Below are positions 1,682 to 5,529 of a stretch of DNA of 7,616 bases, in pieces. How positions within the stretch are numbered: position 1 is the first letter of the stretch; every line of letters starts with the position of its first letter. The notes beneath the pieces are model-generated. The model saw nothing but the letters and a program-made list of their open reading frames with translations, was not told the origin of the DNA and made no database searches. The stretch comes from a virus. Lineage: Duplodnaviria; Heunggongvirae; Uroviricota; Caudoviricetes. Where the stretch lies: IMG/VR virus record IMGVR_UViG_2568526100_000007. The stretch is one strand, 5' to 3'. The position numbers and the translations under genes were made by a program.

Positions 1682-2367
1682 ATAACCAGTATTTACAGTT
1701 TGTTCGTGAGCAACTCATTATCGCCACCGCCGATTTGAGTGGGGCAACAAAAGGTCAGCTTGAAGCCTGGCAGGAGAATGCCATGTTTGATACAGGGCGT
1801 TACAGACGTAAAAAAATCCGGTACCGCGATAAGGTCACTGGAAAAATGGTAACGCTGGATAATCCACCGATCCCGGGAAAGCAATCGCTGGCGAAAGGTT
1901 CATCAATTGCCCTAGTCAGTCCGGTTGAGTTTTCGACATCATCATGGCGACGCGCCGTTCTGTCTCTTGAAGAGCATCAGAAGGCGTGGGTACTGTGGGT
2001 ATACAGTGAAAATCCGAGTTGGGATTATCAGGTGGTCATTGCGAAATGGGCGTGGGATAAGTTTCAGGTGCATTTTGGCACCAGAAAAATTACAGGGAAA
2101 ACGCTTGAGCGTCTGAAGAAATTAATCTGGCTGGCGGCGCAGGATGTCAGGGGGAGGATTACTGGGTGTGACGTCTACCAGCGACAGGAACTTGCCAGAC
2201 TGTGTGGAGTTAAGTCAGACAACTGGAGCCACAATTATGCGCACTACTGGCGTGATATGTGCGACATTTTTAAGAACCTCGACAACGAATCTTTGATTTA
2301 TACCATGAAAACAAGATCGCAACAAAAAGCGACCTTTTCGCGGCGGGTTATTGCAAAAGTCAATTAA
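1678..2367 (+). CDS. Phage antitermination protein Q-like (late gene regulator), 229 aa from ATG 1678; the track's alternative start is GTG 1672.
   Basis: ATG 1678 overlaps the rusA stop (ATGA at 1678-1681) with GGAG 7 nt upstream; size and position (rusA, then Q, then late region) are typical of lambdoid and Stx phages. The family call rests on synteny and general resemblance, not on a search. Confidence 0.65.
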   Translation: MNNQYLQFVREQLIIATADLSGATKGQLEAWQENAMFDTGRYRRKKIRYRDKVTGKMVTLDNPPIPGKQSLAKGSSIALVSPVEFSTSSWRRAVLSLEEHQKAWVLWVYSENPSWDYQVVIAKWAWDKFQVHFGTRKITGKTLERLKKLIWLAAQDVRGRITGCDVYQRQELARLCGVKSDNWSHNYAHYWRDMCDIFKNLDNESLIYTMKTRSQQKATFSRRVIAKVN

Positions 2368-2379
2368 ATCGCGTACATT
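2351..2379 (+). promoter_or_regulatory. Candidate Q-dependent late promoter (pR'-like): -35 TTGCAA (2351-2356), 17-bp spacer, -10 TACATT (2374-2379).
   Basis: Hexamers each 4/6 to the sigma70 consensus with a 17-bp spacer, overlapping the Q stop codon, which is where pR' lies in lambdoid phages. Confidence 0.2.
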
Positions 2380-2432
2380 TCGTGTAAATCTGATATTTTG
2401 CTGATTTTGTACACGATGGCAAACTAAACAAA

Positions 2433-2458
2433 GCCTGCTGCTGAGCGGGCTATCTTTT
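2433..2458 (+). terminator. Candidate tR'-like intrinsic terminator: stem GCCTGC / GCGGGC (one G-U pair), 6-nt loop, then TATCTTTTGT.
   Basis: Hairpin followed by a U-rich tract about 70 nt downstream of the Q stop; analogous to the pR'-tR' arrangement of lambda. Confidence 0.3.
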
Positions 2459-2639
2459 GTCGTAAGTTGAGCGAAAGACCATCGATTTTACCTTGCTAAA
2501 ACTATTCTGCTATTGCCGAGTTACCCTTTAGGTAATACACTCATCTTATAAAAGAAAGTGGTTGTTAGCCACATAGGTTAGGATGTGCGCATACTTTGTT
2601 TGTGTGCTTTTTGTGTTTTATCTGTTAACGGAGGGGAGC

Positions 2640-2867
2640 ATGCCGAAATATCTAACACTTGCCGCTCGCGCGATCCTCTCACCTGAGAAGATCATCAAAA
2701 AAATTGCAGATATAGCTTCCATGTGTGATGGAAAAGAAGCTAAGCATGAAAGTGACAAGTTTTTCATTGATAGTAATGGTTCGATGGTTTTGAATCGCAA
2801 CAACGCTGATGTGCAAAAGGCTTTCGCAGCCAATATTAAGGGATTGAGTACTAAGAAGAAGGGTTAG
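2640..2867 (+). CDS. Small basic hypothetical protein, 75 aa (cassette gene 1). Start chosen at ATG 2640 rather than the track's 2583.
   Basis: GGAGG at 2630-2634, 5 nt before ATG 2640; Lys-rich hydrophilic product (MPKYLTLAARAILSPEKIIKKIADI...STKKKG); low-GC; stop TAG 2865-2867 lies 6 nt before the next gene's ATG. Confidence 0.55.
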   Translation: MPKYLTLAARAILSPEKIIKKIADIASMCDGKEAKHESDKFFIDSNGSMVLNRNNADVQKAFAANIKGLSTKKKG

Positions 2868-2873
2868 TCTTCT

Positions 2874-3671
2874 ATGTGGGCTGCGCTGATTGTTATTGTT
2901 TTAGTTTGTGGTTATCACTATACCAACTGCCATTTGCCGTCACGATACCGTCAAAGCAAAGCGATCGGTTGGAATGCATACTTTGATGTTGCACTGAAAG
3001 GTGGTGAGTTTCTCATAAGTGGTATTCTTATCGCTGCCTTATTGGTTGTTGTTCTGTACGCTGGAATGTCACTTTGGAACATTCCAGCGTACTTGTTTGG
3101 TTGGTACGCTCCCTTTACTTTCGCCCATGACTTTCTCAAAATGCAAGTGTTTGGGTTGAGCATGTTCCCTGCTATGTCGATAGCTTTCACTATTATTGTA
3201 AGTATCGGGAAGGCATCAGAGGCAACCAAAAACCATAAAGACCCACAAAAGCGCAAGGCTATTTTTGAAGAAATTGCGGCTCATAGTGCCGTGGAAAATA
3301 TCCTTCTTGAATCAGTTGAGCGTGGATTGTTATTGTTGGTTACACTGAAGTCTCGCAAGGTCTATGTGGGGATGATTGATGAGGCACGTTTCAATCAGTT
3401 AGATACTAACACATTGGTGCTAATCCCTTTTATGTCCGGGTACAGAGATAAAGATACTCTGACTTTTTGTGTTGAGCATAATTATGTGGACTACTACCTT
3501 AGTCAGGGTATCACATTAACTTCTGAGCCATTGTCAGTTTATCAGTTTAGGCATGTGTTGCCCTTCGATCAGATCGAATCTTTTTCGCTGTTTAATGTTG
3601 AAACATTCGAGACTTTCAAGGCAGGTATTGAAGGGAAGAAGGCCACTGAAGTACAGAATCAAACAAGTTAA
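2874..3671 (+). CDS. Membrane protein of unknown function, 265 aa (cassette gene 2): about four predicted transmembrane helices in residues 1-115, then a roughly 150-aa soluble C-terminal domain.
   Basis: Hydrophobic stretches WAALIVIVLVCGY, FLISGILIAALLVVVLYAGMSLW, AYLFGWYAPFTFA and VFGLSMFPAMSIAFTIIVSIG; long ORF in AT-rich DNA, where chance ORFs are unlikely; tightly linked to gene 1; intrinsic terminator just downstream. Confidence 0.7.
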   Translation: MWAALIVIVLVCGYHYTNCHLPSRYRQSKAIGWNAYFDVALKGGEFLISGILIAALLVVVLYAGMSLWNIPAYLFGWYAPFTFAHDFLKMQVFGLSMFPAMSIAFTIIVSIGKASEATKNHKDPQKRKAIFEEIAAHSAVENILLESVERGLLLLVTLKSRKVYVGMIDEARFNQLDTNTLVLIPFMSGYRDKDTLTFCVEHNYVDYYLSQGITLTSEPLSVYQFRHVLPFDQIESFSLFNVETFETFKAGIEGKKATEVQNQTS

Positions 3672-3690
3672 GGTTGTTACCTCATTAATT

Positions 3691-3716
3691 AAACCCGCCA
3701 TTGAGCGGGTTTTTTG
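3691..3716 (+). terminator. Rho-independent terminator closing the two-gene cassette.
   Basis: Perfect 8-bp stem AAACCCGC / GCGGGTTT (3691-3698 and 3705-3712), 6-nt loop CATTGA, followed by a T-run; 20 nt after the stop at 3669-3671. Confidence 0.75.
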
Positions 3717-3833
3717 ATGCCCGAAGTGCGGTACATTAAACGCGCTGGTAGTTATTAATATCGGTCTTTCAGCTTGCTGGCTTTTTCGACAAGAGTTATT
3801 GGTATGTCACGTTAACCAGAAAAGGGAAAAGGC

Positions 3834-4031
3834 ATGCTAAAACAGCAGGATATGACCGAAACTGCCAGAGTGGTGTTTAATGAATTAAGCGTCACCGAAC
3901 CGGCGACCGTCGGGGAAATTGCGCATAATACTTACCTTTCACGCGAACGTTGCCAGTTAATACTGACCCAGCTTGTTATGGCGGGTCTGGCAGATTATCA
4001 GTTCGGTTGTTACAGACGCCTTCCTCAGTGA
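3834..4031 (+). CDS. Small hypothetical protein, 65 aa; possible winged-helix DNA-binding protein (a PapI/FaeA-like resemblance is tentative).
   Basis: ATG preceded by a purine-rich AAAAGGGAAAAGG; segment TVGEIAHNTYLSRERCQLILTQLVMAGLA resembles a helix-turn-helix recognition region; lies immediately upstream of the methyltransferase. Confidence 0.5.
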   Translation: MLKQQDMTETARVVFNELSVTEPATVGEIAHNTYLSRERCQLILTQLVMAGLADYQFGCYRRLPQ

Positions 4032-4180
4032 AGGCTTTTTTATTTGTGGTAATGGGCGGCTGGTGGGTGTTGGTAGCACCTGCCAGCCATTCGCTCATGC
4101 TTACTGGTCACAAGCGAACCACGGCCCACTGCTTTAGCGCAAAAGCAGAGTGAGCCTACCAGAGTTACGCTTACTGATCC

Positions 4181-5230
4181 ATGAAAAATACTGTAAAAAT
4201 AAACAGTGTTGATTTAATCAACGCTGATTGCCTGCATTTTATTCAGTCCCTGCCTGATGATTCCATTGACCTGATTGTTACCGATCCGCCGTATTTCAAA
4301 GTGAAACCCGAGGGCTGGGACAATCAGTGGAAGGGCGACGATGATTACCTGAAGTGGCTGGACCAGTGTCTGGCTCAGTTCTGGCGGGTGCTGAAACCTG
4401 CCGGAAGTCTTTACCTGTTCTGTGGCCATCGCCTGGCATCTGATATCGAAATCATGATGCGTGAGCGGTTTAACGTGCTGAACCATATCATCTGGGCAAA
4501 GCCGTCCGGACGCTGGAACGGGTGTAACAAGGAAAGCCTGCGGGCGTATTTTCCGGCCACAGAGCGCATTCTGTTCGCGGAACATTATCAGGGGCCGTAT
4601 CGCCCGAAAGATGATGGCTGTGAGGCGAAGGGCAGGGCACTGAAACAGCATGTGATGGCCCAGCTGATTGCTTACTTTCGTGATGCGCGCGCGGCCCTGG
4701 GGATAACGGCAAAACAGATTGCAGATGCCACAGGAAAGAAAAACATGGTGTCGCACTGGTTCAGTGCCAGTCAGTGGCAGCTACCGAACGAAAGCGATTA
4801 TCTGAAATTACAGTCGCTGTTTGCCCGGGTGGCAGAAGAGAAACATCAGCGGGGAGAACTGGAAAAGTCCCATTACCAACTGGTCAGCACATACAGTGAG
4901 CTGAACCGGCAGTATGCGGAGCTGCTGAGTGAATATAAACATCTGCGGCGGTATTTTGGCGTGACGGTGCAGGTGCCGTATACCGATGTGTGGACGCATA
5001 AACCGGTGCAGTTCTATCCCGGGAAACATCCGTGCGAAAAACCGGCAGAAATGCTGCAGCAGATAATCAGCGCGAGCAGTCGTCCTGGTGACATGGTGGC
5101 GGATTTCTTCATGGGTTCTGGCTCAACCATAAAGGCGGCTATGGCGCTTGGGCGTCGTGCAATTGGTGTTGAGCTGGAGACCGGACGTTTTGAGCAGACA
5201 GTCAGGGAAGTTCAGGATTTAATCGTTTGA
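4181..5230 (+). CDS. DNA methyltransferase, beta-class N6-adenine/N4-cytosine type (DPPY motif), 349 aa; apparently an orphan phage methylase.
   Basis: Catalytic motif IV IVTDPPYF (nt 4283-4294) near the N-terminus and SAM-binding motif I FFMGSGST near the C-terminus (nt about 5104-5127), the order typical of beta-class amino-MTases; no restriction endonuclease gene in the window. Confidence 0.85.
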   Translation: MKNTVKINSVDLINADCLHFIQSLPDDSIDLIVTDPPYFKVKPEGWDNQWKGDDDYLKWLDQCLAQFWRVLKPAGSLYLFCGHRLASDIEIMMRERFNVLNHIIWAKPSGRWNGCNKESLRAYFPATERILFAEHYQGPYRPKDDGCEAKGRALKQHVMAQLIAYFRDARAALGITAKQIADATGKKNMVSHWFSASQWQLPNESDYLKLQSLFARVAEEKHQRGELEKSHYQLVSTYSELNRQYAELLSEYKHLRRYFGVTVQVPYTDVWTHKPVQFYPGKHPCEKPAEMLQQIISASSRPGDMVADFFMGSGSTIKAAMALGRRAIGVELETGRFEQTVREVQDLIV

Positions 5231-5279: not shown

Positions 5280-5355
5280 GGCCCTTTAGCTCAGTGGTGA
5301 GAGCGAGCGACTCATAATCGCCAGGTCGCTGGTTCAAATCCAGCAAGGGCCACCA
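5280..5355 (+). tRNA. ileZ: tRNA with CAU anticodon, ileX/ileZ-like (tRNA-Ile2 read via lysidine, or formally tRNA-Met), 76 nt.
   Basis: Hand-folded cloverleaf: acceptor GGCCCTT/AAGGGCC, D-stem GCTC/GAGC, anticodon loop CTCATAA, T-stem GCTGG/CCAGC, 3' ACCA; close to the recalled E. coli ileX sequence. Confidence 0.85.
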
Positions 5356-5362
5356 TCACATA

Positions 5363-5439
5363 CCGCCATTAGCTCATCAGGAAAGAGCGCCAGCCTTCGA
5401 AGCTGGCTGCGCGGGGTTCAAGTCCCCGATGGCGGTCCA
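5363..5439 (+). tRNA. argN: tRNA-Arg, anticodon UCG, 77 nt.
   Basis: Hand-folded cloverleaf: acceptor CCGCCAT/ATGGCGG, D-stem GCTC/GAGC, anticodon stem CCAGC/GCTGG with loop CTTCGAA, T-stem CGGGG/CCCCG, 3' CCA encoded. The symbol is assigned by position in the ileZ-argN-argO cluster of Stx phages. Confidence 0.85.
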
Positions 5440-5452
5440 TTATCTGCATCAT

Positions 5453-5529
5453 GCGTTGTTAGCTCAGCCGGACAGAGCAATTGCCTTCTAAGCAATCGGT
5501 CACTGGTTCGAATCCAGTACAACGCGCCA
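5453..5529 (+). tRNA. argO: tRNA-Arg, anticodon UCU, 77 nt.
   Basis: Hand-folded cloverleaf: acceptor GCGTTGT/ACAACGC, D-stem GCTC/GAGC, anticodon stem ATTGC/GCAAT with loop CTTCTAA, T-stem ACTGG/CCAGT, 3' CCA encoded. Confidence 0.85.

Follow-up and report, generated by a model that had tools for sequence, protein, structure and literature searches.

We identified a two-gene cassette in a 7,616-nucleotide stretch of DNA (IMG/VR virus record IMGVR_UViG_2568526100_000007; the whole stretch is called the window below) that is part of a lambdoid Escherichia coli prophage. The cassette consists of a small gene and, directly downstream, a gene for a 265-amino acid protein that is predicted to span the inner membrane three times and to carry a cytoplasmic domain with a modelled Sm/LSm/Hfq fold. 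Relatives of the pair occupy variable prophage sites, either adjoining validated defence genes or where other phages have such genes instead, and the cassette may be a phage-exclusion module in which the large protein is the membrane effector. The two genes and the ribosome binding signal of the first are as follows:

2640 to 2867, plus strand: small partner gene, 75 amino acids, basic (RefSeq WP_001127354.1)
2630 to 2634, plus strand: Shine-Dalgarno sequence GGAGG of the small gene, kept at the same distance in 7 of 7 aligned copies
2874 to 3671, plus strand: large gene, 265-amino acid inner-membrane protein with a predicted cytoplasmic Sm-like domain

The large open reading frame (ORF) had been singled out in an earlier note made from the DNA sequence alone, and it was found exactly at 2874-3671 on the plus strand, from ATG to TAA, with a RefSeq entry as hypothetical protein (WP_021553036.1) and as a member of a conserved family. 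One search returned 82 relatives of the large protein. A profile search of 1.84 billion cluster representatives (clusters at 50% identity) returned 2744 at E ≤ 1e-3, 1709 of which had E ≤ 1e-10; nearly all relatives found are 240-290 amino acids long, match end to end and share the same full-length architecture. In comparisons of the large gene with homologues of 73-80% identity, nonsynonymous divergence (dN) was about 0.2 and synonymous divergence (dS) was saturated, and the same was seen for the small upstream ORF; by these rates both cassette genes appear to be under purifying selection. Because nearly all of the 2744 cluster representatives share the architecture and dN is low against a saturated dS, the large ORF is a real gene. 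Scanning of the two window proteins against Pfam, NCBIfam and PADLOC gave no match, in line with the statement in the note that signatures of nucleases, kinases, peptidases or nucleotide-binding proteins are absent. In PHROGs only families of unknown function were found, phrog_3630, which covers the full length, and phrog_23864, which covers the C-terminal domain, and no characterization of the family was found in literature searches with DUF6338, the RefSeq accessions, Sm-like combined with defence or abortive infection, and DefensePredictor. Distribution of the family is patchy. Among 5426 complete E. coli genomes searched, the allele of the window occurs in 14, and the region 2400-3750 is 99.6-100% identical in 13 of these chromosomes and 96.9% identical in the fourteenth; 2 of 80 genome loci of the family are on plasmids (Pantoea and Pseudomonas). 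About one in eight genome copies of the large gene is frameshifted or truncated (loci L094, L101, L110, L118, L122, L124, L125, L131, L136 and L145). In two of these (L101 and L118) an intact small gene stands beside the truncated large gene, and in L101 the membrane half is deleted, leaving the small gene directly beside an Sm-like domain that stands alone. Short relatives consisting of the C-terminal domain only were also found (P0125, P0193 and P0217, and phrog_23864).

The note had described the large gene on its own and had not linked it to the ORF at 2640-2867, a picture that has to be replaced by that of the distal gene in a strictly conserved operon. The small ORF of the window ends six bases ahead of the ATG of the large gene, and both ORFs are in frame. 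Each of about 150 loci that have a full-length large gene (the 85 loci first examined plus the genome loci) also has, just ahead of it and in the same orientation, a small ORF of 53-111 amino acids, mostly below 95, separated from the large gene by -15 to +36 nt, and in nearly all loci the order is small then large with a spacing of 0-17 nt. No intact large gene without a small upstream ORF was found among the loci examined. The pair is present in Serratia, Morganella, Photorhabdus, Pantoea, Shewanella, Pseudomonas and Legionella, and also in Psychrobacter, Snodgrassella, Novosphingobium, Bryobacteraceae (Acidobacteriota), Balneolaceae and Binatia. Pairwise identities of the small proteins correlate with those of the large proteins (r = 0.88, Mantel p = 0.001). 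Since a small ORF is always directly upstream and the identities correlate, we take the large gene to be the distal gene of a co-inherited two-gene unit.

The small proteins, of about 55-90 amino acids, are net basic in 90% of cases (mean +4) and share a core of a strand, a Gly-containing turn (D.NG or GRG, with G47 present in more than 90%), a second strand and a helix. An AlphaFold2 model of the E. coli small protein, built from 12 sequences, was of low confidence overall (predicted local distance difference test, pLDDT, 68). In this model N-terminal helices are followed by a hairpin (residues 41-51) and a helix (residues 56-73) that are moderately confident (pLDDT 77-86). No Pfam family matched any of 70 diverse small partners, and a protein search with a profile of these 70 sequences returned just 13 close homologues.

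The membrane half and the soluble half of the large protein are divided as follows:

2877 to 2930, plus strand: TM1 (first predicted transmembrane helix), residues 2-19, N-terminus outside; G13 nearly invariant
2931 to 3005, plus strand: predicted cytoplasmic loop 1, residues 20-44, basic; G32, Y36 and G43 nearly invariant, W33 in 71%
3006 to 3071, plus strand: predicted TM2, residues 45-66, the most hydrophobic segment
3072 to 3149, plus strand: putative periplasmic or interfacial loop, residues 67-92, aromatic, mean Kyte-Doolittle value 0.3, only short helices in the model
3150 to 3209, plus strand: predicted TM3, residues 93-112, with a basic stretch (KASEATKNHKDPQKRK) and two linker helices (residues 124-150) after it
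3288 to 3596, plus strand: Sm/LSm/Hfq-like domain by model, residues 139-241, a helix and five bent strands with the most conserved residues of the family
3597 to 3665, plus strand: modelled C-terminal amphipathic helix, residues 242-264; relatives differ in their tails

The N-terminal half had been described in the note as hydrophobic with about four helices. Its hydrophobic character stands and the number of helices does not: Kyte-Doolittle analysis gives three membrane-spanning segments, at residues 2-19, about 45-66 and about 93-112, and the family-wide profile concurs, with mean values across 125 diverse relatives of 1.87, 1.73 and 1.37 for TM1, TM2 and TM3, respectively. Residues 67-92, probably the stretch taken for a fourth helix in the note, are best read as a periplasmic or interfacial loop that contains no transmembrane (TM) helix. 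Across the same relatives Lys plus Arg amount to 3.7 in loop 1, 1.6 in loop 2 and 5.2 in the segment after TM3, Asp plus Glu amount to 1.3 in loop 1 and 2.2 in loop 2, and ahead of TM1 there are essentially no residues. Since the distribution of Lys and Arg follows the positive-inside rule and nothing precedes TM1, the large protein is predicted to be an inner-membrane protein with three TM helices in an N-out/C-in orientation, as expected from the proposal in the note that a membrane anchor is joined to a soluble domain in the cytoplasm. Four residues at the cytoplasmic end of TM1 and the start of TM2 (G13, G32, Y36 and G43) are conserved in more than 90% of the 125 distant relatives.

The C-terminal half, which the note had read as hydrophilic with a mixed alpha/beta fold, was indeed modelled as such by AlphaFold2 from 43 relatives (mean pLDDT 89.3, predicted template modelling score 0.73). 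Past TM3 the model contains two linker helices (residues 124-137 and 139-150), five strands (153-158, 162-168, 180-191, 198-203 and 227-240) and the C-terminal helix (242-264). The Sm fold consists of an alpha-helix at the N-terminus and, after it, a strongly bent antiparallel sheet of five strands, and the model shows this arrangement. In the Foldseek comparison with the PDB, a check that had been suggested in the note, Sm/LSm chains made up nearly all of the top 50 matches, with probabilities of about 1.0, and because of these matches the modelled C-terminal domain is assigned an Sm/LSm/Hfq fold. MscS was absent among the Foldseek PDB matches listed, no solved PDB chain matched the full-length layout of TM helices plus Sm domain, and a fold search of BFVD gave weak partial matches only. 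At the level of sequence, LSM and Hfq Pfam models matched neither the window protein nor 125 relatives, and a PDB sequence search with two family profiles returned noise only, besides a weak trace of the Sm-like protein YaeO/Rof (E 0.33). Alignment of the family profile by hhalign to single sequences was not significant for AF-Sm1 (E 0.23), Hfq (E 0.078) or MscS (probability 0.1%), and the Sm assignment is therefore one of fold. The large protein differs from Sm/LSm/Hfq proteins in having no significant sequence similarity to them and in its fusion to three TM helices.

Ten residues of the barrel are conserved in more than 90% of the 125 relatives (K162, Y164, G166, P185, S188, G189, Y190, R191, Y204 and F240). 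By the register of the strands, and not by coordinates, they should lie on the beta1-beta2 (LKSRKVYVG) and beta3-beta4 (PxxSGYRDKD) hairpins and form one surface patch, which differs from the pore loops L3 and L5 through which Sm proteins bind RNA. Sm/Hfq folds are classically RNA-binding and typically assemble into rings, and hexameric and heptameric Sm rings form through beta4-beta5 pairing. The edge strand IESFSLF of the large protein is conserved (S236, S238 and F240) and compatible with a ring interface, and a 23-residue insertion is present between beta4 and beta5. One long relative (P0213) has a C-terminal H-NS DNA-binding domain at residues 289-316 (PF00816, 1.2e-9; motif TWSGKGRRPKW), which supports a C-terminus in the cytoplasm and close to DNA in that protein. 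Indirect hints of nucleic acid binding by the family are this fusion, the invariant Lys/Arg/Tyr cluster and the basic character of the small partner. The tails of two other long relatives (P0162 and P0203) are Trp-rich or basic amphipathic.

The cassette is set apart from its surroundings by a G+C content of 40-43% over 2200-3800, compared to 50-58% in both flanks. The elements that delimit it are as follows:

2432 to 2461, plus strand: tR'-type intrinsic-terminator-like hairpin after Q, at the upstream edge of the insert, AGCCTGCTGCTGAGCGGGCT then ATCTTTTG (terminator scan)
2513 to 2541, plus strand: putative sigma-70 promoter, TTGCCG-N17-TACACT, weak (8 of 12 consensus positions) and below the threshold of the consensus scan
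3691 to 3715, plus strand: predicted intrinsic terminator directly after the cassette, AAACCCGCCATTGAGCGGGTTTTTT, which aligns with the annotated rho-independent terminator of SfV and with phiP27

The hairpin at 2432-2461 aligns with the tR' terminator of SfV and phiP27 as well as with the copy at 3691-3715, so that the cassette is bracketed by two diverged copies of one tR'-type terminator (AAAGCCTGCTGCTGAGCGGGCT and AAACCCGCCATTGAGCGGGTT), an arrangement that suggests recombination at or beside the terminator as the route of insertion. Megablast homology to phiP27, SfV and many Stx2 phages begins only at window position 3689. Between the two terminators there are a promoter-like element, the two genes and no further elements. 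The putative promoter aligns in register with TTGCTT...TACAAT and TTGAAC...TACAAT of the Serratia and other copies. From this anatomy the pair is read as a low-G+C moron inserted between Q/tR' and the genes for a winged-helix-turn-helix (wHTH) protein and a methylase. At the same Q-wHTH site SfV has no cargo, and phiP27 has gene L22 (locus L168, 2205-3434, annotated as GIY-YIG nuclease family), which matches the PADLOC model of the validated defence protein PD-Lambda-1 at 2.1e-89. In one locus (L020) the same terminator sequence is found upstream of the cassette instead. A further terminator-like hairpin lies in the leader at 2587-2607 (GCGCATACTTTGTTTGTGTGC then TTTTTGTG), about 30 nt before the ribosome binding site of the small gene, and is missing from the Serratia copy and from another copy (L019). 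It could be an attenuator, or just a remnant that creates a longer, 94-amino acid ORF from 2583.

Relatives of the cassette are found at other variable prophage sites. In Salmonella phages SEN4 and SEN5 and Klebsiella phage ST15-OXA48phi14.1 the cassette is located between replication gene A and the portal/cos end, and in the Klebsiella phage it stands two genes upstream of a match to bSEFIR (6.9e-103). An E. coli P2-like prophage has it in the gpA-portal hotspot, adjoining a gene annotated as superinfection exclusion B family. In Morganella the relative adjoins an Arc/P22-antirepressor (immI-like) region within a block of tail genes, and in Serratia it is located between NinG and a ParD/ParE pair plus methylase. 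The nin region of the Stx1d prophage of E. coli C311 (locus L170, 4203-7820) contains a small defence-type cluster with a divergent copy of the cassette: a cII-like gene (PADLOC cll, 1.2e-28), a PD-Lambda-2_C/beta-like gene (3.7e-41), hokD and then the cassette, which is thus next to hokD and about 1 kb from the matches to the cll and PD-Lambda-2_C models. The 149 neighbours counted at 37 diverse loci included Phage_GPA (4), portal (4), terminase (3) and integrase (3) genes. Beyond these prophages, the cassette is directly downstream of a gene for a 1186-amino acid CHAT-AAA/NB-ARC-TPR protein in an Acidobacteriaceae metagenome-assembled genome (L138, 1921-5478) and beside a gene for a 1090-amino acid PLD-SNF2 helicase in Nitrincola (L121, 6804-10073), and both neighbours look like defence-island genes. 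The PADLOC library (PADLOC-DB v2.0.0) had no match for the pair of the window, nor for the alleles of SEN5, the Klebsiella phage, the Stx1d prophage and the E. coli P2-like prophage, a negative result that is informative because the same library recognizes the neighbouring bSEFIR, cll, PD-Lambda-2_C and PD-Lambda-1.

The interval between gpA and the portal gene (P2 old/tin) is a defence hotspot as defined by Rousset et al. (2022; PMC9122126), and the family is listed in Table S5B of that study as systems #43 and #57, with no Pfam match and the description "2 TM". Along its full length, the protein of system #43 (93 loci) shares 37% identity with the window protein (E 6e-66). In system #57 (75 loci) protein 1 matches the family profile with 99.9% probability, and protein 2 is the small partner with a VVGRG hairpin motif. 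The two systems are divergent alleles in P2-like prophages, and the window copy is the allele of a lambdoid prophage. According to the same study, the transmembrane proteins of systems already known are believed to act as suicide effectors (Rousset et al., 2022; PMC9122126).

Because the prophage cargo sites that hold the family elsewhere hold validated defence genes, we propose that the cassette is quite possibly, though with somewhat less than even confidence, a prophage phage-exclusion module, acting by superinfection exclusion or abortive infection, with the large protein as membrane effector. The suggestion of such a role in the note is plausible and is supported by the genomic context; TM helices are present, and no homology to a transporter or lysis protein was found. 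In the proposed mechanism the Sm-like domains would assemble into a ring, by analogy to Sm/Hfq and to the beta-domain of MscS, and the ring would gather the TM helices, three from each subunit, into one assembly in the membrane. An anionic ligand, with nucleic acid, nucleotides and lipid head groups as candidates, would be bound by the invariant Lys/Arg/Tyr patch (K162, Y164, P185, S188-R191 and Y204), and the small partner would either keep the assembly inactive as a latch or convey or sense the infection signal. On infection the assembly might block genome entry at the inner membrane, or permeabilize the membrane and so abort the infection. A more specific version is doubtful: a membrane-integrated Sm ring, an Hfq-like toroid on about 18-21 TM helices, that binds nucleic acid via the Lys/Arg/Tyr patch, with the partner as latch or co-sensor, and gates a pore or blocks entry. 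The nucleic acid ligand of such a ring would be, for example, the end of an incoming phage genome or a phage transcript.

Several observations weigh against a role in phage exclusion. Neighbours in distant taxa are often housekeeping genes (FtsK, glycosyltransferases, an oxidoreductase and an autotransporter), and the relationship to Sm proteins is at the level of fold, the hhalign comparisons with Hfq, AF-Sm1 and MscS being non-significant. No PADLOC, Pfam or NCBIfam model matches, the promoter of the cassette is weak by consensus so that expression in the lysogen is a prediction from sequence, and ring assembly, ligand binding and membrane effect belong to the conjectural part of the model. 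Moreover, cargo without a role in defence, such as partition systems and toxins, is found in P2 hotspots too, and although the family was catalogued, its motifs are missing from Table S2, which lists the tested systems (Rousset et al., 2022; PMC9122126).

Some of these observations would also suit a non-defence accessory function, in which the large protein is a membrane-tethered Sm-like nucleic acid binder in phage or host physiology, for instance in anchoring or regulation of RNA or DNA at the membrane, in lysogenic conversion or in stress tolerance. The RNA-binding tradition of the Sm/Hfq folds, the H-NS domain in one relative, the basic partner, the many distant homologues among housekeeping genes and the non-defence cargo of P2 hotspots are all compatible with it. 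However, the window allele is present in only 14 of 5426 E. coli genomes, and the family has moved between unrelated prophage sites and stands beside known defence genes; this patchiness, mobility and company fit a conflict gene better than a physiological regulator, and we consider an accessory function of this kind rather unlikely.

A type II-like toxin-antitoxin or addiction module, with the large protein as a membrane-damaging toxin and the small one as its antitoxin, would serve mainly to stabilize the prophage or island and not to exclude phages; it overlaps with abortive infection. The order of a small gene tightly followed by a large one, the strict co-inheritance, the presence of a small ORF ahead of every intact large gene examined, the intact small genes beside decayed large genes (L101 and L118), and neighbours such as hokD and ParDE are what such a module would lead one to find. 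The pattern of decay is, however, equally expected from operon polarity or chance, and the small protein has no recognizable antitoxin or DNA-binding fold; being basic, it is also no complement to the basic patch of the Sm-like domain. An addiction module is improbable in our judgement.

Two further explanations find little room. A function in lysis timing, as a holin- or antiholin-like protein, would suit a small multi-TM protein encoded on the late transcript, after Q/tR' and ahead of the holin-endolysin-spanin genes. A complete and separate lysis cassette (class II holin, lysozyme and lysis protein) is present in the prophage downstream of the two-gene cassette, no holin family matches were found, relatives are located in the P2 gpA-portal, tail and nin regions, away from lysis genes, and a protein of 265 amino acids with a folded cytoplasmic domain is unlike holins; this reading was rejected and we regard it as very improbable. 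A distant housekeeping MscS-type mechanosensitive or ion channel is hardly credible and was likewise rejected, since the gross layout is the same but no MS_channel Pfam match was obtained for the window protein or the 125 relatives, the hhalign probability was the 0.1% given above, the Sm N-terminal helix that the MscS beta-domain lacks is retained, the small partner is obligatory and the location is in prophages.

In overall design MscS is comparable: its N-terminus is outside, and its three TM helices are followed by a cytoplasmic Sm-like beta-domain through which seven such subunits are zipped together to make the channel. The large protein is predicted to have the same succession of three TM helices, N-out, and a cytoplasmic Sm-like barrel, which could join subunits in a ring coaxial with the membrane part; the resemblance is one of architecture only. 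It differs from MscS by two linker helices and a canonical Sm N-terminal helix and by having no alpha-beta domain, and the small partner gene and phage-borne location are features of the cassette.

As an exclusion module, the cassette would join several known types. Two-component prophage exclusion with a membrane effector is represented by lambda RexA/RexB and by gp30/gp31 of the mycobacteriophages Sbash and Butters, and single inner-membrane superinfection exclusion (Sie) proteins by P22 SieA, HK97 gp15 and T4 Imm. Like the RexAB type, the cassette is a prophage-encoded moron with a soluble partner and a multi-TM inner-membrane protein, and its relatives are found at exclusion sites (the Arc/Ant immI-like region in Morganella, the P2 old/tin locus and the SieB-family neighbour). 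There is no sequence or family relationship to the Rex and Sie types, the partner of about 75 amino acids is far below RexA in size, and the effector of the cassette carries a modelled Sm-like domain, which the Rex and Sie proteins are not known to have. Cap15 of the cyclic-oligonucleotide-based anti-phage signalling systems (CBASS) likewise combines N-terminal TM helices with a compact cytoplasmic beta-barrel (Duncan-Lowey et al., 2021, via PMC9122126). By a Cap15-type logic the barrel of the large protein could bind a nucleotide-like ligand and drive oligomerization and membrane damage. The cassette differs in that it has no signal-producing enzyme, its barrel is of another type (Sm-like) and it has no PADLOC match.

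Identity with the TM component of the AC1 TIR+TM system (Rst_2TM_1TM_TIR) of Rousset et al. was considered and rejected. In the Klebsiella phage the neighbour with a TIR domain is a bSEFIR that stands alone, the AC1 protein sequences shown in Table S2A are unrelated, and the family motifs are missing from Table S2 (PMC9122126). Weak matches to DUF6338 (PF19865), an uncharacterized membrane-protein family, were found in 5 of 125 distant relatives (best E 4.6e-5). The match of P0187 runs from residue 3 to 195 on profile positions 8-153 of 205, covering the TM region and the first strands, and scores 14.8 bits against a cutoff of 26.5. No DUF6338 match was found for the window protein or most relatives, and in the literature found DUF6338 had a passing mention in one paper only, with no function reported.

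Elsewhere in the window, Pfam matches include DUF968 (314-1309), RusA (1322-1681), Q (1672-2367) and an N6/N4 methylase (4181-5230). In the annotation of strain AR_0372 the order is replication genes, DUF968, RusA, antiterminator Q and two hypothetical proteins, followed by a 65-amino acid hypothetical protein, a DNA methyltransferase, three tRNAs, a SASA esterase, holin, lysozyme, lysis protein and then terminase. The ORF at 3834-4031 encodes a 65-amino acid, winged-helix-like protein that matches phrog_331 at 6e-37, with weak matches to TrmB, DprA_WH and SWIM_XIII, and a terminator (4018-4035) lies directly after it. This ORF and the downstream N6/N4 DNA methylase gene always occur together in phiP27, SfV and many Stx2 phages, and the winged-helix-like protein may be a regulator of the orphan methylase. 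The N6_N4 DNA methyltransferase (4181-5230, 349 amino acids) is an orphan methylase on the late transcript; its 221-position Pfam domain is spread across residues 29-340, which therefore points to a large insertion, and a weak HTH_3 match is found at residues 167-195. A tRNA cluster of the Stx-phage type at 5280-5529 consists, according to ARAGORN, of a tRNA with anticodon CAT (Met; tRNA-Ile in RefSeq), Arg-TCG and Arg-TCT. No stx genes follow the cluster; in their place an ORF for a SASA-family esterase (NanS-p-like) begins at about 6019 and continues past the end of the window (7616).

The cassette thus belongs to a large family that is spread over several phyla, from Enterobacterales to Acidobacteriota, and over lambdoid and P2-like prophages, and that has no Pfam, NCBIfam or PADLOC model. 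Systems #43 and #57 were catalogued with neither fold nor partner assigned (Rousset et al., 2022; PMC9122126), and the Sm/Hfq-like fold and the small partner make of them a testable two-component system. The hotspots that hold the family are the best-validated defence hotspots of E. coli phages. To our knowledge, an Sm-like fold has not previously been seen in prophage membrane-effector modules, and we know of Sm proteins so far as soluble RNA chaperones. Should the role in defence be true, the large protein would be a membrane effector built on a ring-forming, nucleic acid-binding fold and would link Sm proteins to immunity at the level of the membrane. A nucleic acid-gated ring would, if true, be the first membrane-integrated Sm ring and represent a new class of membrane immune effector present from Enterobacterales to Acidobacteriota. 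Even if there is no role in defence, the large protein would still be the first characterized membrane-anchored Sm-like protein outside MscS.

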